DNA from: Dehalococcoidia bacterium
GTDB lineage: Bacteria > Chloroflexota > Dehalococcoidia > SZUA-161
Direction: 5' to 3'
NCBI GenBank assembly: GCA_035529555.1
Contig: DATKWL010000025.1
Coordinates: 1-35,808 of the forward strand
DNA length: 35,808 nucleotides
The translations under genes were made by a program, and so were the position numbers. This document shows positions 16,288 to 32,428 of this stretch, in pieces. The notes under the pieces were generated by a model, which did no database searches, was not told the origin of the DNA, and saw only the letters and a program-made list of their open reading frames with translations. The first letter of the stretch is position 1. Each line of letters starts with the position of its first letter.

Positions 16288-16568
16288 TTCTTACCCCTCC
16301 CCTTTTGCGCTTCTGTGAGCCTATTGTATTCCTCGAGATAGGTCTCATTACAAAACAATCCGCAGCGGCACCGGTTGATTTCTCTTATATCCTGCAGGGA
16401 CTCCTCACAGGGACAGTGAGCCCTTCCCGGCACACAGGGACAGCAGCCCCCCTTTTTCAGCACCAGGTCGGCCCAGCCGGAGGCAGTCTGGCCGGGGTGG
16501 ATCTGCAATCCGTTGGCCAGGGCAAAATCAGAGATTGCTTGAACCAGGGACTCCTTTTCCATTTCCAT
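16257..16568 (-). CDS. Ferredoxin:thioredoxin reductase catalytic-subunit-like protein (103 aa)
   Basis: The cysteine signature CCPC-x6-CPC-x12-CRCGLF resembles the CPC..CPC..CHC-x-LF signature of FTR catalytic chains. Confidence 0.65.
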   Translation of the reverse strand: MEMEKESLVQAISDFALANGLQIHPGQTASGWADLVLKKGGCCPCVPGRAHCPCEESLQDIREINRCRCGLFCNETYLEEYNRLTEAQKGRGKKWNRRPKISS

Positions 16569-16596
16569 GTTGTCTACCCTATGATTTGTTTATCAC

Positions 16597-16625
16597 TTGA
16601 CAGCCTACTTGATTATAATTATACT
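16597..16625 (+). promoter_or_regulatory. Promoter, TTGACA-N17-TATACT, ending 6 nt before the integrase ATG
   Basis: TTGACA at 16597..16602 and TATACT at 16620..16625. There is no SD before ATG 16632. Confidence 0.55.
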
Positions 16626-16631
16626 CCAGCT

Positions 16632-17375
16632 ATGCAATACAGGTCGGAGAGCACCAAAAAGACATACGAGGTACACCTCCGTCTCTACCTCAAGTGGCTG
16701 GATGGAAGGAAGCAGGATGCCCGGAACGCCCAGGAATACATCGACCACATGCTCGATTCTGGCAGAAAACCGAACTATATTGCAACCGCGGCCAATGCCC
16801 TGCGGGCGCACTGGAAAGACGGAGGGAAAGCGCTAAGCCTCCATGCGCCCACTCCGGAGGTGGGATATCCCAAGTATCTCACGATAGACCAGATTTACAA
16901 GCTCCTGGCGTCTGCCAAGACAGCGCTGGAAAAGTGCATCCTCACTCTGCTTTTTGACACCGGGGCGCGCATCTCCGAGGTTCTAAACCTGCACCTTGAA
17001 GATATAAATCTCGAGGAGCGATTACTGCACGTTACTCGTAAAGGCGGCAGGGAAGAGGATGTTCTCCTGGGTGAAAAGGGGCAGCAGGCGCTGGAGATAT
17101 GGCTTAAGACGAGGAAAAGTAAGGATAAACGGGTCTTCATGGATTACACCTATAACGATATCTATTATATCCTCAAAGAAACCGCGAAAAGGGCCGGTAT
17201 CGAAAATTTCGCCCCCCACATGTTAAGGCATTCTCTCGCTTTCTATATGCTATCGAAGGGCAAGGACCTTCACGACATCCAGGAGATCCTGGGTCACCGG
17301 TCGATAGCAACGACCGCCAATATCTATGCTCGCAGAAAGCCCGAGCATCTGCGAAAGGTGAAGCCGGACTGGTGA
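16632..17375 (+). CDS. Tyrosine recombinase, short XerC/D-like or invertase-like (247 aa)
   Basis: Catalytic signatures DTGARISEV (Arg), HMLRHS (HxxR) and LGHRSIATTANIYA (His..Tyr). I chose the internal ATG because the track's 5' extension is antisense to 16257..16568. Confidence 0.9.
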   Translation: MQYRSESTKKTYEVHLRLYLKWLDGRKQDARNAQEYIDHMLDSGRKPNYIATAANALRAHWKDGGKALSLHAPTPEVGYPKYLTIDQIYKLLASAKTALEKCILTLLFDTGARISEVLNLHLEDINLEERLLHVTRKGGREEDVLLGEKGQQALEIWLKTRKSKDKRVFMDYTYNDIYYILKETAKRAGIENFAPHMLRHSLAFYMLSKGKDLHDIQEILGHRSIATTANIYARRKPEHLRKVKPDW

Positions 17376-18411: not shown

Positions 18412-18441
18412 TCTAGCCCATGTTCGGGTGATATACGCTCA
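18412..18441. repeat. Left arm of a 30-bp inverted repeat bracketing ORF 18470..18982
   Basis: TCTAGCCCATGTTCGGGTGATATACGCTCA equals the reverse complement of 19002..19030 apart from a single 1-nt indel. Confidence 0.9.
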
Positions 18442-18469
18442 AATCTAAAAAAAGAGAGGTAAAGCGTAT

Positions 18470-18982
18470 ATGGTAACGATTGCAATCCCCGAATACATAG
18501 CAAGCCTATTGAAGCCAACCACAAGGCAAACTGGTCGCAAAGTTTGGTCAATAGACCTTGAAACAGTTTGGCTTCCGTTCTTTACGGCTACCAATACGGT
18601 AGGGGCTACCGTGATACCACCCGAGGCACTAGGCTGTCCTTTACGGCTCGCATACGGCAAAGACAGGCTTCCGAAGTTCAACGAGACTACTGGCAAGCCA
18701 GTCATAAGGGTTGCCAAAGAGCTTGGAGATAGCGTCAAGATGGTTCGTGATAACTTTGTAGCCAATCTCCAGAGCTACGCCGTGAATGTCCGCAAGTCTA
18801 ACCTAGATGGCTACAAAGCCGAAATTCTAGCCAATGCGGAAGCGGGCAAGCCGATTGCCGAAGCCGATAGAATGGCAGTTGACAAAGCCATAGCCGAAGC
18901 CGTAGCCGAAGCGATGGCAGGAAAGTCCGCCAGCCCTATCGAAGCCGAAGCCAAAGCCGAAGCCGAATTAGTAGCAGCCTAA
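18470..18982 (+). CDS. Hypothetical protein (170 aa) with an Ala/Glu-rich C-terminal tail
   Basis: ORF track. AGAGAGGT lies upstream of the ATG. GC is lower than in the flanks. The tail reads AEAVAEAMAGKSASPIEAEAKAEAELVAA. Confidence 0.6.
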   Translation: MVTIAIPEYIASLLKPTTRQTGRKVWSIDLETVWLPFFTATNTVGATVIPPEALGCPLRLAYGKDRLPKFNETTGKPVIRVAKELGDSVKMVRDNFVANLQSYAVNVRKSNLDGYKAEILANAEAGKPIAEADRMAVDKAIAEAVAEAMAGKSASPIEAEAKAEAELVAA

Positions 18983-19001
18983 AGCCAGCCAGCGTACTAT
19001 A

Positions 19002-19030
19002 TGAGCGTATATCCCCGAACATGGGCTAGA
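19002..19030. repeat. Right arm of the 30-bp inverted repeat
   Basis: TGAGCGTATATCCCCGAACATGGGCTAGA, starting 20 nt after the stop of 18470..18982. Confidence 0.9.
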
Positions 19031-19045
19031 TAGATTGGGGGATAT

Positions 19046-19627
19046 ATGCCAAACTGGGCTACACAAGCACGGCAAGCGAAGCTAGTGGAATTGTGGGCTA
19101 CATACGGCAATAAATGCCTTCTAGGTCATTCGGTTTGTGATAACCCCGAACATTATATTCACCTAAAGCCAATCCGTTTAACTTGTGGGGATTGGATTAA
19201 AGTACCCGAAGTCAAACGGCTTTACGACTTGAAAGAGTCCGAAGTTATTAGCGATTGGGTGAAAGATGATAGGGAATCGAAAGCATACCTAAACCGCATT
19301 ATATCCCGAATGTTGCACCGTATCCCCGAAGTCGGTTCACTACGAGGTAGGTTTAATGCTATCAGTCGGGATATATTCCACGATAGCCAGCCACAATACT
19401 ATATTGAATCTCTGGGGATTAGCGGGCTAACCTTTAAGCCGTTTGCAAAAGTCCGCATAGCTTCGGGCTACACTCGGTTATTTATTGACTTGAAAGCACC
19501 ATTAGCGAGCTTGTCAAAAAATAAACGGCGTAAATACTTACGCTATGGTAAAGGAATACCATTACCCGTTCAACGGGAAGTTGAAGCTAGTTGTAATAGA
19601 GCGATAGCTCATTATTTGAGCAAATAA
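19046..19627 (+). CDS. Hypothetical protein (193 aa), low GC
   Basis: ORF track. GGGGGA lies upstream of the ATG. The N-terminal Cys/His cluster CLLGHSVCDNPEHYIH could bind metal. No family recognised. Confidence 0.6.
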   Translation: MPNWATQARQAKLVELWATYGNKCLLGHSVCDNPEHYIHLKPIRLTCGDWIKVPEVKRLYDLKESEVISDWVKDDRESKAYLNRIISRMLHRIPEVGSLRGRFNAISRDIFHDSQPQYYIESLGISGLTFKPFAKVRIASGYTRLFIDLKAPLASLSKNKRRKYLRYGKGIPLPVQREVEASCNRAIAHYLSK

Positions 19628-19984: not shown

Positions 19985-20011
19985 TGAAAACACCTGGAAA
20001 GGAGGCACTCT

Positions 20012-20383
20012 ATGTACGATGGCTGGACCCACGGCGTGAAGACGAAGTGCCCCAAGTGCGGCAGCGACGATTGTAATGACACCATCGGTAACCAAACCGT
20101 TGTCGGAATCAAAGTATCGGCCCATGTCATATACTGCAACACTTGCGGCTATCGGAAGGAGGAACTTCTCAAAGATAAAAAGACGATATGGGCTGAGGAG
20201 CATGTAAAAAAGCTCAAATGTAATAAGTGCGGCGTGGAATACTCATCGCCCGAGGACCGAGAGTTTGCAGAGAAGATGAGCAAATCATGGGGAGAGAGTC
20301 TACGATCTGATGGAATTGAACCGACAGGCATAGCCCCATGCCCTAACCTCACCTGCCCGGGTGAGCTCGTAGTGCTGGAATAG
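20012..20383 (+). CDS. Double zinc-ribbon protein (123 aa)
   Basis: AAGGAGG lies upstream of the ATG. Cysteine pairs: CPKCG..C, CNTCG, CNKCG, CPNLTCPG. Confidence 0.65.
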   Translation: MYDGWTHGVKTKCPKCGSDDCNDTIGNQTVVGIKVSAHVIYCNTCGYRKEELLKDKKTIWAEEHVKKLKCNKCGVEYSSPEDREFAEKMSKSWGESLRSDGIEPTGIAPCPNLTCPGELVVLE

Positions 20384-20435
20384 AAATACCGGCGCCACGA
20401 TATTTCTTAAGAAATAACCGATAGCAGGAGGCTAA

Positions 20436-20615
20436 ATGATTTGCGTAGCATGTAAGAAAGAAAAACCAGATGCTAAACCTCGCCAAGTCCATGACGAGAC
20501 TAGCGTACCACTATGTAACGAGTGCTTCGATGGACTTGAGCCGTTACTCAAGATACTGGTAGCTCCCAGTCGGCATGTCTTCGGTGACGGACGCATCACA
20601 CTGATAGTTAGTTAG
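20436..20615 (+). CDS. Small zinc-ribbon protein (59 aa, below the track cutoff)
   Basis: AGGAGG lies 5 nt upstream of ATG 20436. Hand translation: MICVACKKEKPDAK...LCNECFDGLE... Confidence 0.5.
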   Translation: MICVACKKEKPDAKPRQVHDETSVPLCNECFDGLEPLLKILVAPSRHVFGDGRITLIVS

Positions 20616-20626
20616 GAGGTGATAGC

Positions 20627-20797
20627 GTGGATAACGGCAGGCTGTCAGCCATGCAACGTTTCTTCTCTACCGCTGATAAACCGGTGTCGGCCAGGGAGCT
20701 GAAAGAGCTGCGGGAAAGCGACCCTGCAGGCTTTGAGAAACTGGCCGAGGAATGCGAGAAGGCTACGCTGCCACAGAAAATAACTGCGAAGGAGTGA
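20627..20797 (+). CDS. Small hypothetical protein (56 aa, below the track cutoff)
   Basis: AGGAGGTG lies 6 nt upstream of GTG 20627. The frame is open to TGA 20795. An alternative ATG lies at 20651. Confidence 0.45.
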   Translation: MDNGRLSAMQRFFSTADKPVSARELKELRESDPAGFEKLAEECEKATLPQKITAKE

Positions 20798-20814
20798 TTA
20801 GAAGGAGAACCGGC

Positions 20815-20946
20815 ATGACTAGATTGAAGCAGCTGGAGCAACTGAAGAAATGGCTTTGCAAGCGAATGGCTCAGGTAACTGTAGCTGAGCTGCCTGAAGT
20901 AATCAGGTCATATAACGACAAAAAGGTGAAACTCCAGAATAGATGA
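20815..20946 (+). CDS. Small hypothetical protein (43 aa)
   Basis: AAGGAG lies 6 nt upstream of ATG 20815 (internal Met of track ORF 20752..20946). Confidence 0.4.
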   Translation: MTRLKQLEQLKKWLCKRMAQVTVAELPEVIRSYNDKKVKLQNR

Positions 20947-20973
20947 GTTCTAGCCAGGATGGAGGTGGTACAA

Positions 20974-21087
20974 ATGAGAAAACGCTTTCCCTGGTGGGTG
21001 ATAGCCTGGCTGGTCATGTTCGCCGTAGCCTTCGCCTGGGTGACTCTCAATGCTTATTATGGCTGGGTGTTCAACTTATTCAAATGA
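20974..21087 (+). CDS. Small single-TM membrane protein (37 aa)
   Basis: GGAGGTGG lies upstream of ATG 20974. Hand translation: MRKRFPWWVIAWLVMFAVAFAWVTLNAYYGWVFNLFK. Confidence 0.45.
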   Translation: MRKRFPWWVIAWLVMFAVAFAWVTLNAYYGWVFNLFK

Positions 21088-21099
21088 AGGAGGTGAGCC

Positions 21100-21330
21100 G
21101 TGGATGTTTATTGTCCCAGATGCGGCGAGCCATGGGATCTCTACTATGTTCAGCACGAAATGACATCGGAGGAGCGGAGGGATTTCTGGAACAGTAAAGG
21201 ATGCCCGTGTTGCATCAATAAAGAGGTCAAGGAACGACCCGACCGAGCACTCGCTACAGCCGTGCTGCGCGATGTCCTGGGTGATGATGTAGATGGGATA
21301 GCCGCAACGCTTGATGACTTGGGATTTTAA
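21100..21330 (+). CDS. Zinc-ribbon protein (76 aa)
   Basis: AAGGAGGTG lies upstream of the GTG start. Cysteine pairs CPRCG and CPCC. Confidence 0.6.
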   Translation: MDVYCPRCGEPWDLYYVQHEMTSEERRDFWNSKGCPCCINKEVKERPDRALATAVLRDVLGDDVDGIAATLDDLGF

Positions 21331-21377
21331 GTGTTAACACTGTTAACAATGTTATCACCGCAGGAAGGAGGTGATGT

Positions 21378-22046
21378 ATGAGTATTCCTGTCGATGAGCA
21401 TGGAGATATCGTGCCTGAGCCTGAAGAGGAGCACGTAAAGCCTGTCGATGGTCAATGCGGCACTTGCCGGTGGGGGAAAATAGATTCCGCCCCTTCCCCC
21501 TCAGGACCGGAAGATGGGGTGAACTGAGCCAGTGAAGCACATGTTCGCTGGTACAGCGAACAAACTGGGACTGACTATGACCTCAAGGAATTCGAAGAGT
21601 ACGGCGCGGTCAATTATTTCCGGCTCGAGGTCTTAGCAGAAGAGACCTTCATATGCCAGCACTGGCAGCCCCGCCCTAGCGAAGTTAAAGATCAGTGGCT
21701 GCCGACGCCGGACGCTGAGCAGGTAAGCGCCTGCCCATGGTGCGGTCATGAGTACGAACTTGAAGGTAATTATTCGGACCTCTGTGGGTATACCGACCTG
21801 AGCAGCACTTACGCCAAACACGATTGCGGTCACTATGTGCGATTCCGCAGTTGGGCCGATGAACCTGAGGAGACGGAAGAGGAATACCTGAATAAGGTCA
21901 TAGAGTCAGCAGGCCAGGCTTTCTGGGCGCAGATCGCCGCTGACTACCCTCAGGTAAAAACGGGAGATTTCCCGCCCAACGAGCACGTCGTATGGCATAA
22001 AGCCATGGAGACAGCCGTACGTGCGTGGCTATCCGCAAATTGGTAG
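21378..22046 (+). CDS. One reading frame of 222 codons interrupted by an in-frame TGA at 21525..21527 (recoding, read-through or pseudogene)
   Basis: AAGGAGGTG lies upstream of ATG 21378. After the TGA the same frame stays open for 173 codons. There is no ATG, GTG or TTG in frame until 21837, yet the translation looks protein-like (..CPWCGHEYELEG..). Confidence 0.5.
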
Positions 22047-22058
22047 GAAGGAGGTAAG

Positions 22059-22400
22059 ATGGCACAGGTATCGTTTATTTACAGGTTGCCCAATATGTTA
22101 TCCCTGCTCAACCTGGTGCCCGAAGAGAATCGTCCCCGAGATGACCAGCTCGCGCTGTTCTGGCAAATTGTGGCGCGGGAACTAGCCGAGCTAATACGAT
22201 ACGCGGCCTCTGCGAAACAGCCGGAAATCTGTTTCTCTGAGGGGCGGCAAGGCGGCGAGCAGTACCTCTGGGAGTTCTGGGTTAACGATCTGTCCTCGCC
22301 GGTGCAGAATCAGTACAACTTTCATGGGCAGAACACATCCCAATGGCTGTATGCGGGAGGGATAGTGCTGCAAAACGGAAGGGTCAGTGCGCACCACTAA
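22059..22400 (+). CDS. Hypothetical protein (113 aa)
   Basis: AAGGAGGT lies upstream of the ATG. ORF track. Confidence 0.6.
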   Translation: MAQVSFIYRLPNMLSLLNLVPEENRPRDDQLALFWQIVARELAELIRYAASAKQPEICFSEGRQGGEQYLWEFWVNDLSSPVQNQYNFHGQNTSQWLYAGGIVLQNGRVSAHH

Positions 22401-22421
22401 ACTGCAGGAAGGAGGTGACCG

Positions 22422-22709
22422 ATGCAGTCGACAAAGTTCTCGCTCGGTCAGGTTGTGGTGACCGCCGCTGTGAATGTGGCGATCGCAGATGACCCCGCGA
22501 TTGCCAAGCTGGTGCCCCAGCTCATAGCGCGGCATCATGCTGGAGACTGGGGAGACCTTGAGCCGTGCGACAAGAAGGAGAATGAGTTCTCCCTGACGCG
22601 CAAGCTGCGGTTATTCTCATCGTATAACATACCCGGTGACAAGAAGATCTGGATTATCACGGAAGCAGACCGCAGCTCCACCTGCGTCCTGTTCCCCAAA
22701 GATTACTAG
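22422..22709 (+). CDS. Conserved plasmid/phage-associated small protein (95 aa)
   Basis: AAGGAGGTG lies upstream. The pattern RHHAGDWGDL...ENE....LRLFSSY...KIWIITEADRSSTCVLFPKDY matches a family I recall from plasmids and ICEs. I do not know its family name or function. Confidence 0.6.
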   Translation: MQSTKFSLGQVVVTAAVNVAIADDPAIAKLVPQLIARHHAGDWGDLEPCDKKENEFSLTRKLRLFSSYNIPGDKKIWIITEADRSSTCVLFPKDY

Positions 22710-22803
22710 CAAGATAGCAGTAACCTAGGCTGCCGAACAGGACGCAAGTTTACCTCTTACGCCCTGTCGAGACCCTAGGAACAATACCAGGAAGGAGGTG
22801 AGA

Positions 22804-23115
22804 ATGGCTGAGAAATCCGAGTCAACGAGTTACAAGAAGCATGCTGCAGCAACGAAAGACCGGGATAAGCTGCTCCAGGACCTCGCCAAATGGCTTGATG
22901 TGAATACTATCGCCGAGGCAATCGTCGACCGCATGGAGATAGAAGAGGTCGAGGTAAATCTCGAGGCCGCCAAGACGGTCTGGGAGTCCGTTCTGGAGGT
23001 CGAGATGAACGATGTCCTCGAGTCCCGTGTTCAGGAGCTCCTTGACAATGAGAAGCTGAAGCCCGCAGTTCCGATAGAACAGGCTGCCAGTGCCAAACCG
23101 AAATGGCAATTTTAG
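22804..23115 (+). CDS. Acidic hypothetical protein (103 aa)
   Basis: AAGGAGGTG lies 4 nt upstream of ATG 22804 (the track starts at GTG 22798). Confidence 0.6.
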   Translation: MAEKSESTSYKKHAAATKDRDKLLQDLAKWLDVNTIAEAIVDRMEIEEVEVNLEAAKTVWESVLEVEMNDVLESRVQELLDNEKLKPAVPIEQAASAKPKWQF

Positions 23116-23149
23116 TCCAGCTCTAACTGGATTTTAGGGAGGTGAAAAA

Positions 23150-23524
23150 GTGGCTCGTAAATTTATCGTAGACGGGAGAGAGTTCCCAGACCCGGATCCT
23201 AGCAAGTCGCCGGAGGAAGTCAGGCGCATGATGACCGACTTCTTCCCCGAGCTGTCCACCGCGACCACGCAGGAGCACAAGCAGGGTGATGATACCGCCT
23301 ATGAATTCATCAGGCGGACCGGCACAAAGGGTCGCAAGGGCAGCAAGTCTGTACCAATACACTGTGCGGTTTGCGCAACAGACAAGAACATCGCCTGCCC
23401 CCGAGATGTAGATGCTCAGTGTGCCCACTGCGGCGGGTACTTCTGTGGTGGCCATATCGGCGGCCACCTGAAGTCTGTCCACTGCGTTAGCCTGGACCTC
23501 GATTACGTCACCAGAAAGGACTAG
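23150..23524 (+). CDS. Ubiquitin-like (PRTRC protein C-type) domain fused to a C-terminal Cys/His-rich extension (124 aa)
   Basis: GGGAGGTG lies 5 nt upstream of the GTG start. Residues 1-61 read ..RKFIVDGREFPDPDPSKSPEEVRRMMTDFFPELSTA....YEFIRRTGTKG, like the small PRTRC Ub-like proteins that end in GTKG. Residues 62-124 carry about 10 Cys/His. Confidence 0.6.
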   Translation: MARKFIVDGREFPDPDPSKSPEEVRRMMTDFFPELSTATTQEHKQGDDTAYEFIRRTGTKGRKGSKSVPIHCAVCATDKNIACPRDVDAQCAHCGGYFCGGHIGGHLKSVHCVSLDLDYVTRKD

Positions 23525-23528
23525 GCTG

Positions 23529-23750
23529 ATGGAAAAGTACATCGAGGCGCTTCAAAAGCTGCCACTATGTCGCCCCGCAGTCATTGGCCTGGCGTGGAAA
23601 TTCACCAGGCCCGATGGCAGCCTGGATGAGGATCTCATGAGCTTTCACATCGAGGAGATCCGCGAGGCCGGGCAAGAGGCGCGGGCTATCGTTAACTCTA
23701 CCAGAGAGGCGGTAAGGTTGCTATGGCGATTGCAGCGCTCGACCAGCTAA
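23529..23750 (+). CDS. Hypothetical protein (73 aa)
   Basis: ORF track. It starts 2 nt after the upstream stop, inside the cassette. Confidence 0.5.
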   Translation: MEKYIEALQKLPLCRPAVIGLAWKFTRPDGSLDEDLMSFHIEEIREAGQEARAIVNSTREAVRLLWRLQRSTS

Positions 23751-24904
23751 GCCGTAAGCTAGTAAGCCTCGCATCTCCGCCCTCGCTGCCGGACCTTGAA
23801 ACCATTCTCTGCAGCGCGGAAGACTACAGGGCATTCATGCGCATAGTGCGTGAGTTTTTGCCCGAGATAGAGGATGACGTGCGCAGGGCGGGGTCACCGC
23901 CAGATAAGATGGCAGTTTTCGCCACCGCCTTTGAACGCCGGTACTTTCCTCTGCATCCCTCGTTCCAGGATGGGGCAACTGAGGCGTACGACCAGCTGGT
24001 ACGCATGATTCCCGTCATGGTCCTTAGTACGGATTGGGATGATTACCATACCATAGCCGAAGATAGCTGGCAGGCGGGACTGCAGCTGGCGACCTATCTG
24101 CTGGCCGATCCCTATGGTGAGGTGTCGAGAGGTTCACGTACTCCCCTGGCGGAGACATGCGCCCACCATGTTCACCGGCATCTCCTGAGGCGTGTTCCTG
24201 AAGCAGGGCTGGGGAACGAAGAGGTGCACAAGCTGCTTGACGGCACAAAATTCGAGGCGCTGGCCACCTGGTCGGATATGCTGGGCATGTGCTGCGGTAA
24301 TGCATTTACAGATAATTCCGCAGAGCAGGCATTCACGCCTTGCCCAGCCCTTGATTGGACCCGGGAAAATATTGATGCGCTCACGCAGCAATGGCTACAG
24401 GCGGAGGTCATACAAAACAAAACGAACAACCTGTTCGCCTGGATCGAGGAAGATCCGACAGGTCACCTGACGGAGCTTCTCGACTTTATAGACGACAGGC
24501 GCCGGGAGCTGGGCAAAAAGCCTATGAAGCCCTCCCGTGTTCCCAAGTTCAAACCGCGAGCTTCGGACATAAAGTGGGTGCAGGACCTGGTGAGGCAAAT
24601 AAGCATGGGCGGCGTATGGGTAGCCCCTGCAGGCTTCGAGTTCCAGAAGGTGGGGGAGCGGGAGATAAAGCTCACCAGGGCCAGCAAGGACCCCAGGCAG
24701 CACGCTGACGCCATGGAGTTGATTAACCGAACAGTTGCCTGTGGCAAGGCAGGACGTATCAAGGTAAATATCGATGACTTGGAAAAAATTCTGAAGGGAG
24801 GTAAGCATGACGCTGACGCAGGAACCACAAGCGCTCCAGTGGCAACTGCCAGAGAAATTGGAAGTGCAGCCCGACCAGCTCAAGGTCAGGCTAGACTTCT
24901 ATGA
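23723..24904 (+). CDS. Large cassette protein (393 aa); possibly a PRTRC protein F-type component
   Basis: ORF track. Size and position inside the Ubl/E2/JAB/E1 cassette are the only support. Its 3' end overlaps the next gene by 98 nt. Confidence 0.55.
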   Translation: MAIAALDQLSRKLVSLASPPSLPDLETILCSAEDYRAFMRIVREFLPEIEDDVRRAGSPPDKMAVFATAFERRYFPLHPSFQDGATEAYDQLVRMIPVMVLSTDWDDYHTIAEDSWQAGLQLATYLLADPYGEVSRGSRTPLAETCAHHVHRHLLRRVPEAGLGNEEVHKLLDGTKFEALATWSDMLGMCCGNAFTDNSAEQAFTPCPALDWTRENIDALTQQWLQAEVIQNKTNNLFAWIEEDPTGHLTELLDFIDDRRRELGKKPMKPSRVPKFKPRASDIKWVQDLVRQISMGGVWVAPAGFEFQKVGEREIKLTRASKDPRQHADAMELINRTVACGKAGRIKVNIDDLEKILKGGKHDADAGTTSAPVATAREIGSAARPAQGQARLL

Positions 24905-25532
24905 GAGCTGTGTAGTAGCCCACTTCTGCGGCAATGGTGTAATCAGCAGTCGCACAGTATCAGCGCAGGACGTGGCTCTAGCTTTGCTGGGTGAAACCAA
25001 CCTGCTGAGCGGGCTGCTGCCGCGCGATACCCTCTGCTGGGGCCCGGGCGAGATTGCGATGTGGGTCGAGCCGCGCGTCTGGCCGGTGGCGCTCATGACC
25101 GAGCCATTCCAGCCCCCGCAGCGGCTGAAGTTGCCCATGCCCGGGCTGATCTTCATCTGCCGCCCTGGGCAGCCACCCAGGGTGTATGCTGCCAAGCGGC
25201 GCCCGTCAGACATGGAGGCCATAATCTATCATGCACCGCTGTTCAATGTCTATAACGACGGGCGGAGCTGCGCCGGCAATAACAAGTACCCGGACAAGCT
25301 CGAGGAGATTCCCAAGGCCTTCTTCCTCAGCTTCTTCAGCATAGTGAGCGACTCGGCGAAGCGGTCGAAGAAGTACCCCGATAGCCTGATGAAGTTATGG
25401 CTCGAGCTTAACGGCAAGACCAAATACCCGATGGATGACCTTGTGCCCCTGGTGCGGCTCAAGGACGTAATCGGCAACAAGACCAGCGTTTTAATCCCGG
25501 ATATCATTGCCAACCTCGAGAATGAGGGGTAA
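24807..25532 (+). CDS. E2/UBC-like protein (PRTRC protein B-type, 241 aa)
   Basis: GGGAGGT lies 5 nt upstream of the ATG. The segment IYHAPLFNVYNDGRSCAG gives His..Asn-x7-Cys, the HPN..C spacing of E2 active sites. LPMPGLIF, YAAKRRP and FFLSFFS blocks match my memory of prokaryotic E2 family B. Confidence 0.6.
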   Translation: MTLTQEPQALQWQLPEKLEVQPDQLKVRLDFYESCVVAHFCGNGVISSRTVSAQDVALALLGETNLLSGLLPRDTLCWGPGEIAMWVEPRVWPVALMTEPFQPPQRLKLPMPGLIFICRPGQPPRVYAAKRRPSDMEAIIYHAPLFNVYNDGRSCAGNNKYPDKLEEIPKAFFLSFFSIVSDSAKRSKKYPDSLMKLWLELNGKTKYPMDDLVPLVRLKDVIGNKTSVLIPDIIANLENEG

Positions 25533-25552
25533 AGGCTATAGAGGATAAGTAG

Positions 25553-26119
25553 GTGATGGGAAACGTCGGATATCGTTACTTCACTGACCATGGGCTGGTG
25601 GGCGAGCCAGGCCTGTATTATGACTATATCGTGGGCGGAAACGGGCTGTTTATCCGTGCCGGCAATCGCTTCATTAACGCTACTGTCTGCATTGGCCATG
25701 CCAAGATCAGAGGCCTCCAGCCGATACGCCCGCTGGTGGTTTTGAAGCAGGGCAAGATTCCCTGGGGCATCTACCATGAGGCGATACGGATACTGATGGC
25801 AGACGCCCTGTGCGAGCACTACCTGGCCGTGGTGTGGACGGACGGCTATCAGCTGGTCCATCCGCAGCAACTGGGTACCGAGGCTTCATGTATGTATGAG
25901 CGTGTGCCCGATACCGTGATGGAGATCCACAGTCACGGCCTGATGAGCCCATTCTTCAGCGGCATAGATAATGCCGATGAGCAGAGCATGGCTATCTATG
26001 CCGTGGTAGGCGGACTCGACCGATTCATACCTGACGTTAATCTGCGTATCGGTCTATATGGTTATTACGACAGGCTAAATCATAATGAGGTGTTTGGAGA
26101 TGTACAAGCTGTCAAATAA
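25553..26119 (+). CDS. JAB/MPN (JAMM) metallopeptidase (PRTRC protein A-type, 188 aa)
   Basis: Complete JAMM motif: an upstream Glu (LCEHY), then EIHSHGLMSPFFSGIDNADE, which is HxH-x7-S-x2-D. The start may be GTG 25553 or ATG 25556. Confidence 0.85.
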   Translation: MMGNVGYRYFTDHGLVGEPGLYYDYIVGGNGLFIRAGNRFINATVCIGHAKIRGLQPIRPLVVLKQGKIPWGIYHEAIRILMADALCEHYLAVVWTDGYQLVHPQQLGTEASCMYERVPDTVMEIHSHGLMSPFFSGIDNADEQSMAIYAVVGGLDRFIPDVNLRIGLYGYYDRLNHNEVFGDVQAVK

Positions 26120-26900
26120 CTGGCGCGGCAATTACCCAAGAGATGATTACAGAATTGCGGTCATCGGGTGTGGCGGCACGGGCGGCTTTGTCGCTGAAGG
26201 CCTGTGCCGGATGCTCCCTGACCATCTGGTGGTCATGCTTATTGACCCTGACCGTGTTGATGAGCGGAATCTGGTGAGGCAGAATTTCTATGCCGGCGAG
26301 CTGGGGCAGTTCAAGAGCCAGGCACTGGCTAAGCGCCTGAGCCAGAAGTTCAACCGCCGCATCGCCTATTTCACCAGCCCGATATCCATGCTCGAGGCTT
26401 TTCCCGACGTAATAATCGGCTGCGTGGATAACGGGCCTGCTCGTCGCGATATTGCAGATAAGATAACCCGGAAATATAACCCGTTCGGCATGTTCCGCGG
26501 CTGGTGGGTTGATTCAGGAAATGAAAGGAATTTCGGGCAGGTGCTCATCGGCAATCACCCTGCTAGCGGGCTTGAAGAGAGTTTTGAAACAAAGCGTGAG
26601 ATATGCTTGGCGCTTCCGCTGCCCACGGAGCAGCGACCGGAGCTTTTGCTGACGCTGCCGGCGGCGCCCGCATGCGCCGATATGGATGAGCAGGGCCCGG
26701 TGATAAACCAGTGCATGGCATCGTTGGTGCTCGAGGTGGTGTGGCGTATCCTTGTGGGCACTTGCTCCTGGATGCAGCTCAACCTCGATATGGAGATGGG
26801 CACGCTCGCGCCTGTGCTGGCAACTCCCGAGAATGTATCAGCAATAACGGGGATAAAGGTCAAGAGTCTAACTTTTGTTGAAAGTAAAGGAAGGAGGTGA
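26100..26900 (+). CDS. ThiF/MoeB/E1-like adenylyltransferase (PRTRC ThiF-family protein, 266 aa)
   Basis: Rossmann loop IAVIGCGGTGGFVAEGL, then LIDPDRVDERNLVRQNF and IIGCVDNGPARRDI. ATG 26100 is preferred over 26085 because GAGGTG lies 10 nt upstream. The gene overlaps the JAB gene. Confidence 0.85.
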   Translation: MYKLSNNWRGNYPRDDYRIAVIGCGGTGGFVAEGLCRMLPDHLVVMLIDPDRVDERNLVRQNFYAGELGQFKSQALAKRLSQKFNRRIAYFTSPISMLEAFPDVIIGCVDNGPARRDIADKITRKYNPFGMFRGWWVDSGNERNFGQVLIGNHPASGLEESFETKREICLALPLPTEQRPELLLTLPAAPACADMDEQGPVINQCMASLVLEVVWRILVGTCSWMQLNLDMEMGTLAPVLATPENVSAITGIKVKSLTFVESKGRR

Positions 26901-26903
26901 GTC

Positions 26904-27200
26904 ATGGCTTCAGCGGAAATTAAAATCGTAATCGTGCTGAAGGAGAACCGCGCCTCGGTGGGCATACAGGCGCCCGAGTGTGACCCTATCATCTCAACGC
27001 TCGAGGGCGACCTGGTAACCGTTTGCGGCGAGCTGCCCGCGCTGGTAGCCCAGGCAGAGCAGAAGTGGAGCGAAAGCCCGCGTTTTGCCAAGGCTGTTAT
27101 AGTCGAGCCGCCCGCGTCGGTTCCCGCCGTCACAGCCACTGGTGGGTCCCCCAGAGCCCCCAAGCCCGCAGCCCCAGCGGTCAAGCCCACCTGGTTCTAA
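26904..27200 (+). CDS. Small protein with a Pro/Ala-rich tail (98 aa); possibly PRTRC protein E-type
   Basis: GGAGGTGAG lies upstream of the ATG. It is the last gene of the cassette. The family assignment rests on position and composition only. Confidence 0.55.
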   Translation: MASAEIKIVIVLKENRASVGIQAPECDPIISTLEGDLVTVCGELPALVAQAEQKWSESPRFAKAVIVEPPASVPAVTATGGSPRAPKPAAPAVKPTWF

Positions 27201-27208
27201 CTTCAGAT

Positions 27209-27270
27209 GGTCACCTTGGTTTACTAAGGTTTACTAAGGTCACCCTGGTTGGCATATTTTCTGGCATATT
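27209..27270. repeat. Cluster of three pairs of short direct repeats (iteron-like)
   Basis: GGTCACC[TC]TGGTT at 27209 and 27238, tandem TTACTAAGGT x2 at 27221..27240, and TGGCATATT at 27250 and 27262. Confidence 0.7.
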
Positions 27271-27290
27271 AGGTAACTGATTTTGTGTAA

Positions 27291-27314
27291 AAAAGCGGGT
27301 TAGGCTCCGCTTTT
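27291..27314 (+). terminator. Hairpin terminator after the cassette
   Basis: Stem AAAAGCGG/CCGCTTTT with an 8-nt loop. The T tract is part of the stem, so the hairpin could terminate in both directions. Confidence 0.5.
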
Positions 27315-27351
27315 GTGGTAAGAATTATGCCCTGGAAAGGAGGTGAGAAAG

Positions 27352-28707
27352 ATGAAAATACAGGTGCTGAAACTCCGTAATGCCCTGGGTTTGCTTGAGG
27401 GGTTGGCTACCGTTAAATCCGCCAGGACAAAAGCGACTGCTAAATCGGGTAAAGGAGGGAGAAAGTCGACGAAGACAACCTTTAAACCTCAAATCTACCC
27501 GGTGCTGAGCAATGTCCTGTTACAGGATGGCATGGCAATAGCAACCGACCTTGAGATCGGGGTAACTGTGGCATTGGATGAGGTTGTCGGTCAATACCTG
27601 CTGCCATATCGAGAGGTGTCTAAGCTTCTTCGATATGTTCCAGGCAACGAGGAGGTGGAGATTGCTATGATGGGACATAGCCTATCGTTGAGCTGGGAGG
27701 GCGGCAGTGCTAATTACCAGGCCGATGACCCTGCAGAATACCCGGTATTGCCGCAGATAAACCCGGTAATAAAATGTGCCGTATCGGCTGACATACTGAC
27801 GCCTGCACTCGTGTCCATGCTGGACTATTGCTCTGACGAACAGGAAAGGCCAGTGCTGACCGGCGTGAGCCTTTTCTTGGGCACACAGCTTGAACTGGCT
27901 GCCGGTGATGGGAACCGCATGGCGTACAAGACGTTGCCGATATCCATACCACCGGCTGACGGTCTTAAGACAGTCATCCTGCCCCAGAGGGTGGTGAAAA
28001 CCATGGAACTCCTGTGGAAGAAGGCGCCCAGGCCAATACCAGAGGATACCTCGGTGATAGATATAGCCTCTATGGTAGCCACCAAGGGGCCGATGGAATT
28101 GGAGCTGAGCCCGATACTGATAAGGGTTCAGTTCGGCATAGTGACATTGTTGGCCAAGACAATCACGGGCACGCCGCCAAACTTCAAACAACTCATACCC
28201 TCTTCCGGTAGCTCTCAGTTCAATTCTGTGAACATCTATGCAGCGGACCTCGAGATAGCGCTGCGCCGCATTATGGGAGCTGTTGAAGTTGGAGAGGCCG
28301 CGGCGGTGCGTATGGAATGGGACAATGGCAAGATGAAGCTTGCCACGGGCTATCTGGAGAACCGCATTGAAGTCTCTATGCCCGTGGGTACTTCCAATGG
28401 TGCGGGACGGGTTGCCCTTGACTTCAAATACCTCATGGAATACATCAAGGGCAAAGCGGGGTTGATAACCATGGACGTATCAACGCAGACCAACCCTGTT
28501 CTCTTCCGGCATAGCAACTCGCCGCTTGTCTGTATCATGCCCATGAACGTAAGCTGGCCAGGCGACCCCGTGGCAGAAACTAAAGCCGAGACAGTACAGG
28601 AAACTACAGCAGCACAGAAATCCGAGGAAACCAATGCAGAGGAGCCTGAGGACGAGACCGCCGAAGATGAAGACAAATCCGCAGAGGGAGAAGGGGCTGC
28701 TGCCTAG
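27352..28707 (+). CDS. dnaN: DNA polymerase III beta (DnaN)-like sliding clamp with a basic insertion and acidic C-terminal tail (451 aa)
   Basis: AAGGAGGTG lies 6 nt upstream of the ATG. The N-terminus MKIQVLKLRNALGLL....YPVLSNVLLQDGMAIATDLEIGVTVAL parallels the PILGNLLL..G.L.LTGTDLEME region of bacterial DnaN. The length fits three clamp domains plus a tail. Confidence 0.75.
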   Translation: MKIQVLKLRNALGLLEGLATVKSARTKATAKSGKGGRKSTKTTFKPQIYPVLSNVLLQDGMAIATDLEIGVTVALDEVVGQYLLPYREVSKLLRYVPGNEEVEIAMMGHSLSLSWEGGSANYQADDPAEYPVLPQINPVIKCAVSADILTPALVSMLDYCSDEQERPVLTGVSLFLGTQLELAAGDGNRMAYKTLPISIPPADGLKTVILPQRVVKTMELLWKKAPRPIPEDTSVIDIASMVATKGPMELELSPILIRVQFGIVTLLAKTITGTPPNFKQLIPSSGSSQFNSVNIYAADLEIALRRIMGAVEVGEAAAVRMEWDNGKMKLATGYLENRIEVSMPVGTSNGAGRVALDFKYLMEYIKGKAGLITMDVSTQTNPVLFRHSNSPLVCIMPMNVSWPGDPVAETKAETVQETTAAQKSEETNAEEPEDETAEDEDKSAEGEGAAA

Positions 28708-28717
28708 CAAGTAATTA

Positions 28718-28743
28718 GAGGGCTGGGAACGCCCCCAGCCCTC
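28718..28743 (+). terminator. GC-rich hairpin after the clamp gene
   Basis: Perfect 10-bp stem GAGGGCTGGG/CCCAGCCCTC with a 6-nt loop. The T tract that follows is poor. Confidence 0.4.
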
Positions 28744-28758
28744 GCTCCTTTGAGGTCA

Positions 28759-29361
28759 ATGATGAAAACAACGGTCTGCCGTGGCTGCCCTCGACGTTTT
28801 CGGCAGAGAAAACGCGGGCGGCAATGGTACTGCAAGGCATGCCGCCTCAAGCGCCAAAAAAAGGATCGCAAGCACAGAGCACATAAAAGGATGGCGCGCT
28901 ACTACAGGCGGCTGCGCCGTGGTCTTTGCCCTGAGTGTGGGGGCTGGCGTGATGGCGAAGGGATACAGTGCCGGCAGTGCCGGGAACAGAACAAAAACGC
29001 ACAGAGGCGTTGCATAACGAGCCCGAGGAGAGCCAGATACATGCGCCGTCTCCTCAAGCGCAGGCGCAGGGAGGGCATGTGCGCCTATTGCGGGCGGGAA
29101 ATTGACGAACCCGGGTACCGGATGTGCTCTAAATGCCGCAAGCATGGCAGGGATTATTACTACATACCTGAGGTGCATGAGAAGGTCAGGCTTTATGCCA
29201 AGGATCACTACCATCATGAGCCTGTCCCTATCTGCAAGGTATGCGGTTGTCCCCACCTTCGCTGCGACCGCTGCCAGAAATTTATGAAGGCGACTCATGG
29301 CAATGATAGGTGTATCTGGACCTGCAGGTGTGGCATCGAGAAAACATTTCGAGGTCCTTGA
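28759..29361 (+). CDS. Highly basic protein with three zinc-ribbon plus Arg-rich-helix repeats and a C-terminal Cys cluster (200 aa)
   Basis: Three CxxC-x10-14-CxxC units are each followed by an Arg-rich stretch (RYYRRLRR, RYMRRLLKRRRR, or KHGRDYYY). The start is ATG 28759 or 28762. Confidence 0.7.
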   Translation: MMKTTVCRGCPRRFRQRKRGRQWYCKACRLKRQKKDRKHRAHKRMARYYRRLRRGLCPECGGWRDGEGIQCRQCREQNKNAQRRCITSPRRARYMRRLLKRRRREGMCAYCGREIDEPGYRMCSKCRKHGRDYYYIPEVHEKVRLYAKDHYHHEPVPICKVCGCPHLRCDRCQKFMKATHGNDRCIWTCRCGIEKTFRGP

Positions 29362-29993
29362 TGGCAAAAAATTACACACGCAACAATAAAAACAATCATC
29401 GATGGACTGAGGACGAAACTCTAATTGTGCGCCGTGACTACAAGGGCGACAAAGCTTCCACGCAGGCGATTGCCGACGGCTTGGGCGTCAGCTTCTATGC
29501 AGTCAAGGGCCAAGTATCGAAGATGGGGATAACCTTCCAGGACAGGCAGTACTGGACCAAGAGGGAAGAGGAACGGCTAAGAGAGTTGATGCCGCGATAT
29601 GCCCCCACCCGGGTTGCCAAGATAATGCACAGGTGCCTTAACTCCGTAGTGCTCAAGTCTAAAAGGTTGGGGATATCCAGGAGGACCCGATACGGCTGGT
29701 TCACCAAGCAAGAGGTGTGCGAGATCCTGGGTGTAGACCACAAGTGGCTACAGAAGCGGATTGATTCAGGGTCGTTGAAGGCAAGATACCATTATCCCTA
29801 TCATAAGCCTGGGAAGTTGGGCATGGCTTCATGGGAGATAGACGAAAAAGACCTGGTGCGGTACATACGCCGCTACCCGCAGGACCTCATGGGGCGCAAC
29901 GTCGATATTATACAGATAGTAGAGATGCTGGCTGGATTGCTTAATCACGTCGCCCCTGATAATGAACCCGATTATTATTTAGAAGGGAGGTGA
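29361..29993 (+). CDS. DNA-binding protein with two SANT/Myb-like repeats plus an HTH (210 aa)
   Basis: The start overlaps the upstream stop (TGATG). Repeats are HRWTEDETLIVRR..IADGLGVSFYAVKGQVSKMGI and QYWTKREEERLRE..VAKIMHRCLNSVVLKSKRLGI, followed by WFTKQEVCEILGVDHKWLQKRI. Confidence 0.65.
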   Translation: MAKNYTRNNKNNHRWTEDETLIVRRDYKGDKASTQAIADGLGVSFYAVKGQVSKMGITFQDRQYWTKREEERLRELMPRYAPTRVAKIMHRCLNSVVLKSKRLGISRRTRYGWFTKQEVCEILGVDHKWLQKRIDSGSLKARYHYPYHKPGKLGMASWEIDEKDLVRYIRRYPQDLMGRNVDIIQIVEMLAGLLNHVAPDNEPDYYLEGR

Positions 29994-29998
29994 TACAG

Positions 29999-30604
29999 AT
30001 GGGAGACTACCTGAAACTCAAGAATGGCGACAGTATCAAAATTGGTACCTGTGGCGATAACCAATATATGAGGCATGACGAGGCCCTGCGGTTCTGGCAC
30101 CTGGATGTGAGCGATCAGATGACGGGAAACCTTAAATATCTCGATGCACTGTGGAGATTCCCTTATCCCCAGGAGGACCATGCAACCCTGGAGGACATCT
30201 GCCGTAGGAGTATGTTCTATACCACTACATTCACGGTGCCTAAAGAATGTCTATCGCAAGACCATGACGAGATTTGTGTCCATGTGCAGGCCCAGAATGA
30301 TAATGGCTGGGGAATCAACCGGCTCATCCCCTGTCCGCTTTCCAAGGATGATAAGGTCTATGGGGCGAATGTTGCCTCACCCATAGTGCAGATATATGGA
30401 GAGCGTTACGATAGCGAGGGGCATCCCAGGACAATCTTTCGCTGTGGGTACTGTGGCAAACCCTTCTCGTTAGGACAGGATGAGATCGAGGCGTATCGAC
30501 AGGCTTTTATTAAATACCATACCAGATATGTAGCTGGCGAGAACATCTGCCCCGACTGGGCAGTAGAAACGGCGGCGAGATTTAGTGCCGCAAATGAAGA
30601 GTAA
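29999..30604 (+). CDS. Hypothetical protein (201 aa)
   Basis: GGGAGGTG lies 6 nt upstream of ATG 29999. One CGYCG zinc-knuckle-like element. Confidence 0.65.
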   Translation: MGDYLKLKNGDSIKIGTCGDNQYMRHDEALRFWHLDVSDQMTGNLKYLDALWRFPYPQEDHATLEDICRRSMFYTTTFTVPKECLSQDHDEICVHVQAQNDNGWGINRLIPCPLSKDDKVYGANVASPIVQIYGERYDSEGHPRTIFRCGYCGKPFSLGQDEIEAYRQAFIKYHTRYVAGENICPDWAVETAARFSAANEE

Positions 30605-30629
30605 TGACAAAAAGGTAGGGAGGTGAAGT

Positions 30630-30926
30630 ATGTACATACGCGTAACTCTGATGGAGGGCAATGCCCAGCTCAGAACAGAGTTGGACTTCGCCCGGGCCCA
30701 GGAGGAGATGAAGCGCGTCCTGGGATTCAGAGGAGAAGTGTTCTCGGGGCATATGCAGGAACAGTCCTGCTCACTGCTTATTCAAACAAACGACAAATGG
30801 CATATATCCGAGGAGCAGAAATTAGGGTACCTGGAGGAATGGATTAATGCCAGGGTTCGTAGCAGCTATGTTGTGGCGAAGGTTGAGAAGGAGAAGCGAT
30901 GTCAGCCGGCAAGAAGCAAGTGCTGA
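30630..30926 (+). CDS. Hypothetical protein (98 aa), last gene of the plus-strand operon
   Basis: GGGAGGTG lies 5 nt upstream of the ATG. Confidence 0.6.
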   Translation: MYIRVTLMEGNAQLRTELDFARAQEEMKRVLGFRGEVFSGHMQEQSCSLLIQTNDKWHISEEQKLGYLEEWINARVRSSYVVAKVEKEKRCQPARSKC

Positions 30927-30958
30927 ACAGAATCAGGGAGCTCGAGGGCAGTGCTTTT

Positions 30959-31843: not shown

Positions 31844-31886
31844 TCCACACCTCCACCCGAATACTGAAAATTACCCTTTTGGGGTC

Positions 31887-31915
31887 TTGACAATGCGCTT
31901 TCTTTGTATTATTGT
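31887..31915 (+). promoter_or_regulatory. Promoter, TTGACA-N17-TATTGT
   Basis: Consensus -35 box and acceptable -10 box, 37 nt upstream of ATG 31952. Confidence 0.5.
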
Positions 31916-31951
31916 AGCGACACTCTACCAGACAGGGGGTATAAAGTCAAG

Positions 31952-32206: not shown

Positions 32207-32242
32207 TCATGAATTATGAAGGGGAAGCTAAGAAGGAGACCG

Positions 32243-32428
32243 ATGCCTAGGGAGAAAGATTTGTTGAGAGATGTAGAAATACTGGGGCAGGCAGCTTCAG
32301 GGTCTTTTACCATGAACGATGAGTTTAAAGAAGCGTGCAGGAGGGGGCAGGAAGCCATAATTAGACTTTACCGGTTTGATGACCATCCCCCCGTAAAAGA
32401 TGATAGTAAGGAAAAGCGAGGAGGATAG
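32243..32428 (+). CDS. Small hypothetical protein (61 aa)
   Basis: AAGGAG lies 5 nt upstream of ATG 32243 (internal Met of track ORF 32216..32428). Confidence 0.5.

Follow-up and report, generated by a model that had tools for sequence, protein, structure and literature searches.

A predicted ubiquitin-like conjugation cassette related to PRTRC is linked to a sliding clamp gene on mobile elements of Chloroflexota

Background

Cassettes of the PRTRC (ParB-related, ThiF-related cassette) kind, which combine a ubiquitin-like protein (Ubl) with E1-like, E2-like and JAB enzymes, were predicted in 2006 to be true prokaryotic Ubl conjugation systems, and form class 6d of that survey (PMC1779556). 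Class 6d is described there as Ubl, JAB, E1 and E2 together with a "rapidly diverging alpha-helical protein" in which charged residues are conserved (PMC1779556, Table 1). Here we analyze such a cassette at positions 23150-27200 of a 35,808-nucleotide stretch of DNA from a Dehalococcoidia bacterium (contig DATKWL010000025.1), referred to below as the window, which belongs to a circular mobile element. A sequence-only reading of the window had described a complete Ubl, E2-like, JAB and E1 cassette of PRTRC type in the replication operon of a virion-encoding element, and had proposed a virus-side role in which it acts on replication or host-defense proteins.

PRTRC/6d cassettes are widespread on plasmids, integrative and conjugative elements (ICEs) and some phages. 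The function of the PRTRC cassette has not been studied, according to a recent report on a phage that carries one (PMC13366799), and a survey of the searchable literature for functional work on PRTRC or on the E2 family Prok-E2_D returned none, with no target or function. The bacterial systems that have been characterized are type II CBASS (an antiphage signaling system that is based on cyclic oligonucleotides), Bil and Bub (PMC11601596; PMC11601603).

What is new in the Chloroflexota cassettes described here is their near-constant linkage to a small protein, p98, and to a DnaN sliding clamp, the clamp-type termini on p98 and on the long form of a second protein, p393, and a putative Ubl precursor with swappable tails. 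We give about an even chance (roughly 0.5) to the reading that the cassette is a working Ubl conjugation system of the PRTRC/Iyer 2006 6d lineage that is recruited to the sliding clamp of the element and acts on the replication machinery.

Results

Seven tightly packed co-directional genes occupy positions 23150-27200, with gaps of 3-23 nucleotides (nt) or overlaps of 20-41 nt, and a dnaN gene that is divergent in sequence begins 142 nt past the last cassette open reading frame (ORF) (Table 1). The seven-gene block and dnaN were found again in about 100 non-redundant loci from metagenomes and metagenome-assembled genomes (MAGs), which were collected for comparison, and residue counts were made over 60-92 relatives. 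Because the block and dnaN recur in about 100 loci and the catalytic residues are invariant, the cassette is not a product of chance.

Table 1. Coordinates of the cassette genes, the sliding clamp gene and other features of the window
Feature	Position	Strand	Basis
Ubl precursor, 124 amino acids (aa)	23150..23524	+	Prok_Ub PF14454, 45.2 bits, E 8e-12, residues 1-59
p73, small conserved protein	23529..23750	+	tblastn from window protein: 32/43 loci with enough upstream sequence
p393, protein at PRTRC protein F position	23723..24904	+	AlphaFold2, family search
E2-like conjugating enzyme, Prok-E2_D	24807..25532	+	PF14460, 71.1 bits, E 1e-19; public gene calls start 24864
JAB/JAMM metallopeptidase, predicted Ubl-processing/deconjugating enzyme	25553..26119	+	PF14464, 26.9 bits, E 5e-6
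E1-like adenylating enzyme, ThiF fold	26085..26900	+	PF00899, 55.8 bits, E 5e-15; public gene calls start 26100
p98, small N-terminal domain, Pro/Ala-rich linker, C-terminal KPTWF	26904..27200	+	conserved linkage and terminus
DnaN beta sliding clamp, element-encoded	27343..28707	+	TIGR00663 E 3e-22; phrog_947 'DNA polymerase processivity factor' E 7e-31
Tyrosine recombinase 1	16305..17375	+	phrog_1 E 5e-40
p170 and p193, backbone gene pair travelling with the cassette	18470..19627	+	tblastn
Tyrosine recombinase 2	33272-34453		PF00589 E 1e-34

All four conjugation-system proteins exceed their Pfam gathering thresholds (25 bits for Prok_Ub, Prok-E2_D and Prok-JAB, 28.1 bits for ThiF). The catalytic set is also present, comprising the C-terminal glycine of the Ubl, the E2 cysteine, the JAMM residues (E...HxH...S..D), and GxGxxG, Asp and Cys in the E1. 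The motifs from which the cassette had been recognized all lie where they had been placed (RRTGTKG at the end of Ubl residues 1-61, HAPLFNVYNDGRSC in the E2, HSH-x7-S-x2-D in the JAB, and GCGGTGG together with DPDRVDERNLVRQ in the E1), and its description as a complete cassette of the PRTRC, class 6d, kind stands. Of the Pfam families suggested for checking, Prok_Ub, Prok-JAB and ThiF were matched, but the E2 belongs to family D rather than to Prok-E2_B. Ubl, p393, E2 and JAB are all encoded in 38 of the 43 loci with enough upstream sequence; three loci lack JAB and two lack both Ubl and E2.

The candidate catalytic residue of the E2 is Cys155, with Asn147 before it, and N147, G152, C155 and G157 show no variation among relatives (61/61). 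The JAB residues E88, H126, H128, S136 and D139 are likewise invariant (60/60), as are D54, D56, R65, K77, D115 and the candidate catalytic Cys197 in the E1 (92/92), an enzyme for which 1379 homologs were found. Profiles of the E2 and of p98 had no match among PDB sequences, and PHROGs recognized only DnaN in the cassette region apart from weak matches to the E1. By sequence, MccB and ThiF are among the closest solved relatives of the E1, which favors a role other than protein conjugation, with E1 and Ubl acting as a ThiS/MoaD-type sulfur carrier or an MccB-like peptide modifier and the E2-like and JAB proteins serving as scaffolds. However, the E2 Cys and Asn and the full JAMM site are conserved alongside the E1 Cys, the precursor tails of the Ubl (see below) fit a cycle of processing and conjugation, and genes of the sulfurtransferase, thiazole or molybdopterin kind were absent from the Pfam scans and precomputed Pfam hits for the element. 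We therefore regard this explanation as highly improbable.

The strongest functional clue that the sequences offer is the adjacency of E1, p98 and dnaN together with the protein termini encoded there. In p98, an N-terminal domain of about 55 aa and the extreme C-terminus are conserved, whereas the linker between them, rich in Pro, Ala and Ser, is not; the protein was without a match in Pfam, NCBIfam, PADLOC or PHROGs. Each of the 50 loci for which at least 2.5 kb of sequence is available downstream of E1 encodes p98, and DnaN is encoded in 49 of the 50. The start of p98 lies no more than 150 nt from the end of E1 in 77 of 89 loci, and in locus L009 the p98-dnaN pair has been relocated yet is still adjacent. 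The bacterial clamp-binding consensus is QL(D/S)LF, a variable motif usually found in flexible termini (PMC6511837). C-termini of this type (Q/K-x-x-[WMLF]-F) are found in 79 of 82 complete relatives of p98: 77 end in [LMWFI][FL] at most one residue from the stop, and in another two the protein runs on for two residues past the motif. Examples are KPTWF in the window and QPSWF, QPRMF, QPSFF, QQSLF, QINLF and the exact consensus QLSLF in relatives. Among the 61 ORFs of the window, only three have such an ending, namely p98, p393 and one loose match.

That a sliding clamp follows the cassette immediately had been noted from the sequence and is borne out by the family matches of DnaN (Table 1). 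This DnaN has a Lys/Arg-rich loop insertion in its N-terminal part and an acidic C-terminal tail. In the alignment of its relatives the DG-x-R and MP motifs are invariant and the DG-x-R-[LM] and MPM signatures are kept; we take these signatures to lie in the peptide-binding cleft, as in the E. coli beta clamp. Since the terminal motifs coincide with a near-obligatory E1-p98-dnaN adjacency, p98 and p393 are probably tethered to the clamp of the element, a conclusion drawn from a short motif and gene linkage. The Lys/Arg-rich loop of DnaN was considered as an acceptor site and rejected, as the loop is missing in several relatives. Directly after DnaN, positions 28750-29361 encode an Arg/Cys-rich protein of 203 aa with many CxxC pairs, which is 65-68% identical to proteins in loci L004 and L007.

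p393 overlaps the E2 gene and belongs to a family with 424 cluster representatives among 1.84 billion proteins. Its AlphaFold2 model (mean predicted local distance difference test score, pLDDT, 88.8) has a helical core (residues 1-264) followed by a small alpha/beta domain (280-358); residues 361-393, with pLDDT below 50, are predicted to be a disordered tail and end in GQARLL. The alignment of the family contains invariant E, D, R and H residues. No fold match was found in a Foldseek search of the model against the PDB, and Pfam, NCBIfam, PADLOC and PHROGs gave no match to the protein. Of the 24 long forms of p393, 20 have G/D-Q-x-R-[LF]-L at the C-terminus, and QLRLF is the terminus of one short form.

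The cassette and the p98-DnaN pair might instead have separate functions that happen to share an operon, the former serving a PRTRC-like role in maintenance, partition or addiction and p98 being an ordinary clamp-binding replication accessory. Canonical PRTRC cassettes usually lack an adjacent dnaN, the ideas of a "partitioning cassette" and of addiction through modification and de-modification have been published (PMC13366799; PMC1779556), and p393 has short forms without the motif. Moreover, elements of the L004 type keep p98 and DnaN without Ubl or E2. The L004 element itself, a related element of 63 kb (regions 8657-8869 and 9538-11138), encodes JAB, E1, p98 and DnaN and has no detectable Ubl, p73, p393 or E2. 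However, p98 is held close behind the E1 stop in most loci, and even these reduced elements keep it with JAB and E1. In addition, p393, which is encoded within the cassette between Ubl and E2, independently ends in the same type of motif in most of its long forms, and the absence of a recognizable ParB, stated in the sequence-only reading, was upheld by Pfam searches of the main window ORFs, NCBIfam searches of the cassette and its neighbors, and precomputed Pfam hits for the remainder of the 52-kb circle. A division of the operon into two unrelated functions thus appears doubtful to us.

The Ubl appears to be encoded as a precursor in the window. Its beta-grasp Prok_Ub domain (residues 1-61, DNA 23150-23332) ends in G-T-K-G and is followed by a Cys/His-rich tail of 63 aa (23333-23521) with the pattern C-x2-C-x15-C-x2-C-x4-C-x2-H-x3-H-x4-H. 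The Ubl domain ends in G-[TV]-K-G in every relative. Of the 52 complete Ubl genes, 38 have the stop codon directly after G[TV]KG, and 12 have tails of more than 20 aa, which are of three unrelated kinds. The first is the Cys/His-rich tail, shared with invariant Cys/His spacing by the window and five relatives and found only as a Ubl fusion. We read it as B-box-like from the Cys/His spacing alone; a search of its profile against the PDB returned only a non-significant match to eS27 (E 0.06). The second is a domain that L001 and L027 carry as a Ubl fusion and that also occurs as a free-standing ORF of 70 aa in L004, which has no Ubl. The third is p73, fused in frame to Ubl in L045/L046. Because the three kinds are unrelated, one being also free-standing and one being p73, the tails are small proteins in their own right that have been joined to the Ubl. 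The Ubl would thus be made as a precursor with swappable C-terminal tails, and a peptidase would be required to expose Gly61, for which JAB is the obvious candidate. In the three loci without JAB that were inspected (L009, L028 and L040), the Ubl is tail-less in all.

p73 itself had no match in Pfam, NCBIfam, PADLOC or PHROGs, and an hhalign comparison with the 74-aa ORF found at the corresponding place in a Sphingobium plasmid was negative. In L045 and L046, Ubl and p73 form one polypeptide of 135 aa (7364-7768 in both), which ties p73 functionally to the Ubl.

With regard to PRTRC, the best NCBIfam matches of the four proteins are PRTRC_C, PRTRC_B, PRTRC_A and PRTRC_ThiF, all below the curated cut-offs (44.6 vs. 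45.95, 64.8 vs. 131.45, 40.7 vs. 101.8 and 108 vs. 144.75 bits, respectively). These matches confirm the naming given in the sequence-only reading (A for JAB, B for E2-like and C for Ub-like). The canonical gene order is ParB-E-C-F-B-A-ThiF in a Cupriavidus plasmid and ParB-E-C-74aa-269aa-B-A-ThiF in the Sphingobium plasmid, and the order in the window, Ubl(C)-p73-p393-E2(B)-JAB(A)-E1(ThiF), is as in these two plasmids and Burkholderia phage BgVeeders33 minus ParB and E. The description of class 6d also applies, with the four enzyme families present and p393 having a helical core (1-264) with invariant charged residues. The assignment to "PRTRC type" is therefore sustained by gene order and best matches, but not by the scores, and PRTRC proteins D, E and F were not detected, with p73, p393 and p98 lacking any NCBIfam match. 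None of 99 p393 family members matched TIGR03742 (PRTRC_F), and hhalign gave a probability of about 0.1% both for p393 vs. PRTRC_F and for p98 vs. PRTRC_E, comparisons made with shallow profiles, which may miss remote homology. Given the scores under the cut-offs and the lack of detectable PRTRC_F homology for p393, we conclude that the cassette represents a deeply diverged Chloroflexota sister clade of PRTRC and is not a member, as judged from family profiles.

Two observations on canonical cassettes bear on p98 and DnaN. The PRTRC_E proteins at L011 4666-5121, L015 3115-3540 and L016 888-1361, and the BgVeeders33 ORF at that position (L018 16213-16761), have a layout like that of p98, in which a small domain at the N-terminus is joined by a linker of low complexity to a hydrophobic extreme C-terminus (SLL, SLW, TNF and DMY), and profile homology was not found. 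Also, a Pseudomonas rhodesiae megaplasmid with a canonical PRTRC ThiF carries a dnaN gene (L016 11012-12121) about 4 kb downstream of it.

A further possibility is that the cassette is defense or counter-defense cargo, which would tag phage proteins in the manner of Bil or use JAB to strip the host's Ubl or cGAS conjugates, as made by Bil or by CBASS Cap2. All characterized bacterial E1/E2/Ubl systems (type II CBASS, Bil and probably Bub) act against phage (PMC11601596; PMC11601603), and on the 137-kb contig of L009, which lacks JAB, CBASS-like SMODS and TIR-SAVED genes and a MAD7 gene lie near the cassette (12809-15446). However, PADLOC (v2.0.0, 2023, which is older than Bub) matched none of Ubl, E2, JAB, p393 and p98, and E1 matched the Cap2 "E1-E2" models over residues ~20-90, the nucleotide-binding loop, only. 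The cassette is also part of a fixed backbone, in synteny with dnaN and p170/p193 in about 100 loci, rather than a gene of a variable island, and we consider a defense role unlikely. Of the targets that had been suggested, replication gains from the clamp-binding motifs and the dnaN linkage, whereas nothing was found to support host-defense (anti-Bil/CBASS) targets.

The window corresponds to the first 35.8 kb of a 53,256-bp ENA contig, whose proteins are also deposited under a Dehalococcoidia MAG. The same sequence is present on a 52,230-bp JGI contig that joins the window at position minus 15,191 and at plus 36,903 and whose ends overlap by 136 bp. Because the JGI contig maps to the window at both offsets, the molecule forms a closed circle with a length of 52,094 bp, and since the circle is closed and the element was recovered in several assemblies (several samples, 16-18 contigs), its complete gene content is known. 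One arm (~15-47 kb) is devoted to recombination and replication, and encodes two tyrosine recombinases, p170/p193, the Ubl cassette, DnaN, helix-turn-helix proteins, an MmcB-like nuclease, RecT, HNH, a DnaC/IstB-like loader and a DnaJ-like protein, in agreement with the replication setting first proposed for the cassette. The converging arm of about 22 kb consists mainly of ORFans, its recognizable products being a 1128-aa beta-helix protein, NosD/beta-helix, CARDB and membrane proteins, a transglutaminase-like protein and a methyltransferase. p170/p193 gave tblastn matches in 17-18 relatives (33-72% identity), always upstream of Ubl, and no family match in Pfam, PADLOC or PHROGs searches.

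Relatives identified in a scan of GTDB genomes are nearly all in Chloroflexota MAGs (Dehalococcoidia, Chloroflexia and Anaerolineales), and we infer that several of them are integrated copies because they lie inside contigs of 179-836 kb, such as the 836-kb Chloroflexia contig CAWKAJ010000001.1. In phage and plasmid collections, megablast found nothing that matched positions 20000-35808. Scans for promoters and terminators over 22000-29500 remained at background level, a tRNA search found no tRNA genes, and there is no terminal repeat within the window itself.

The element had been called virion-encoding, a claim that we could not sustain. Pfam and PHROGs searches of the main window ORFs and, over the remainder of the 52-kb circle, precomputed Pfam hits revealed no terminase, portal, capsid or packaging ATPase, although capsid genes too diverged to recognize would escape such scans; the same searches found no relaxase or type IV secretion genes. 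Pfam on about 40 ORFs gave nothing virion-like, and PHROGs on 20 ORFs of the left arm and middle gave integrase only, plus two weak matches. The E1 clade was not present in IMG/VR (2.9 million contigs, searched with E1, E2 and E1-alignment queries and with an invariant-motif pattern). In favor of a virus, IMG/VR contains 123 relatives of a 276-aa protein encoded at 4499-5329, many of them on contigs of 40-48 kb, and IMG/VR contig L088 has five further left-arm genes in common with the element. The AlphaFold2 model of the 276-aa protein (pLDDT 80.7) is all-beta, and Foldseek matched it to two uncharacterized phage proteins (E 3e-7 and 3e-6) and weakly to tail-fiber/tailspike domains, with no capsid fold among the matches. 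The left arm also encodes beta-helix fiber-like proteins. Pfam searches of the large ORFs of the IMG/VR relatives L059 and L088 yielded beta-helix, InlB-repeat and NUMOD3 domains and no terminase or portal. Thus, virion production by the element is unproven.

PRTRC on viruses is, in any case, not new. A 2026 paper described a full cassette including ParB in the Burkholderia gladioli phage AB2, with homologs in BgVeeders33 and Ralstonia phage Dina (PMC13366799). In a tblastn search of a phage collection, PRTRC-type E1s were found in a few phages, with an E1 identity of 25-32%. The BgVeeders33 genome, in which terminase, portal, capsid and tail genes are annotated, also encodes C (129 aa, tailed), a 61-aa ORF, F, B, A and ThiF, and its PRTRC proteins all score far above the NCBIfam cut-offs. 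Because the virion is unproven and phage-borne PRTRC was already on record, the proposal of a virus-side Ubl system is weaker than it had been made out to be.

Several other features of the element were noted. A 30-33 nt inverted repeat (18412-18444 and 18999-19030) flanks the p170 gene, and a 37-nt palindrome that could be a regulatory or origin site lies where the two gene arms diverge (15405-15441). Three direct repeats of about 145 bp, which Tandem Repeats Finder did not report, occupy an intergenic gap of the minus-strand arm (7852-8226), and each includes a hairpin rich in GC (AAGCCTGCGG...CCGCAGGCTT). Three neighboring small minus-strand proteins of 152, 193 and 220 aa are encoded at 8261-9879, of which the first two are clearly paralogous and have a 54-nt DNA repeat in common, and the 152-aa and 220-aa proteins both end in ...EVAYAKV. 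The giant 1128-aa beta-helix protein (3-3347, minus strand) contains three repeated modules. Window positions 1-257 are a 96% copy of 2686-2942, and the window therefore starts inside a beta-helix repeat; its first 331 nt have no counterpart in the JGI contig.

Discussion

The arrangement of the cassette suggests how it may work. The Ubl would be translated as a precursor that JAB cuts after Gly61 (G-T-K-G), freeing the 63-aa zinc-finger tail. To judge from the invariant residues, E1 would then adenylate Gly61 and load the Ubl on Cys197, from which it would be handed to Cys155 of the E2. The flexible C-terminal Q-x-x-hydrophobic-F/L peptides of p98 and p393, whose conservation and linkage were described above, are predicted to dock in the DnaN cleft, and docking would bring about conjugation on the clamp or on clamp-bound proteins, with JAB also reversing the modification. 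The purpose would likely be control of the element's replication, by licensing, copy number or partner switching on the clamp, which would make the cassette a bacterial-element counterpart of PCNA ubiquitylation and SUMOylation. The specific version of this scheme, in which a cascade of E1, E2 and Ubl docked through p98 and p393 covalently modifies the clamp or a clamp-bound factor while JAB matures the precursor and erases the mark, is one that we put forward only tentatively.

Several points weigh against recruitment of a working conjugation system to the clamp. Clamp binding is read from a short motif alone, and in most p98 motifs the canonical Leu is replaced by Pro or Gln at position 2 and by Trp or Met at position 4. 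Short forms account for 29 of 53 complete p393 proteins, and only one of them ends in a clamp-type motif. The window E2 has Asn at the fourth residue after the catalytic Cys, as do 18 of 61 relatives, whereas in the other 43 this residue is the His described by Iyer et al. as absolutely conserved in class 6d (PMC1779556). Neither a target lysine nor an E3 was identified. Finally, p98 and E1 may have a role that is independent of conjugation, because L004-type elements keep both without detectable Ubl or E2.

PRTRC/6d cassettes are found on many kinds of mobile elements, and the Chloroflexota clade supplies a concrete physical lead to their role, with a link to replication that is stronger than could be seen from the window alone and that is open to direct testing. 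If the proposed scheme is true, control of sliding clamps by modifiers would not be limited to eukaryotes, and if canonical PRTRC_E is in addition the equivalent of p98, the scheme would supply the function that has long been missing for PRTRC as a whole, be it on plasmids, ICEs or phages. The Ubl genes also indicate that Ubl-fusion precursors with interchangeable cargo domains exist in bacteria.

Of the described systems, PRTRC (TIGR03734-03742; class 6d of Iyer 2006) is the closest. It has in common with the window clade the four catalytic families, the gene order, a helical protein of ~270-400 aa and carriage on mobile elements, and at times a C-terminal extension of the Ubl (such as the 129-aa PRTRC_C of BgVeeders33). 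In contrast, the hosts of the window clade, among those that are named, are nearly all Chloroflexota MAGs, and its obligatory p98 and dnaN with clamp-type termini were not seen in the five canonical cassettes inspected. The phage-borne PRTRC cassettes resemble that of the window in their location, which is the early/replication arm of an element of temperate type and 30-50 kb, and in having a tailed Ubl followed by a small ORF. However, they are canonical, score above the cut-offs and sit with annotated virion genes, none of which are recognizable on the window element. Bil (I/II), type II CBASS Cap2/Cap3 and Bub (6E) follow the same E1/E2/Ubl/peptidase logic, and the Bub Ubl is also processed from a precursor (PMC11601596), but they use other E2, Ubl and peptidase families, reside in defense islands and have phage or immune targets, whereas the cassette of the window appears to be a clamp-tied part of the backbone.

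The remaining parallels are with eukaryotes, where modifier machinery is recruited to PCNA by short clamp-binding peptides for ubiquitylation and SUMOylation, and where ubiquitin-ribosomal protein fusions provide a modifier made as a fusion to a small, often zinc-binding protein and then released by a peptidase. The likeness of PCNA modification and ubiquitin-fusion precursors to the cassette described here is conceptual only: the clamp here is of the bacterial beta type, and we do not claim that the adaptors are homologous.

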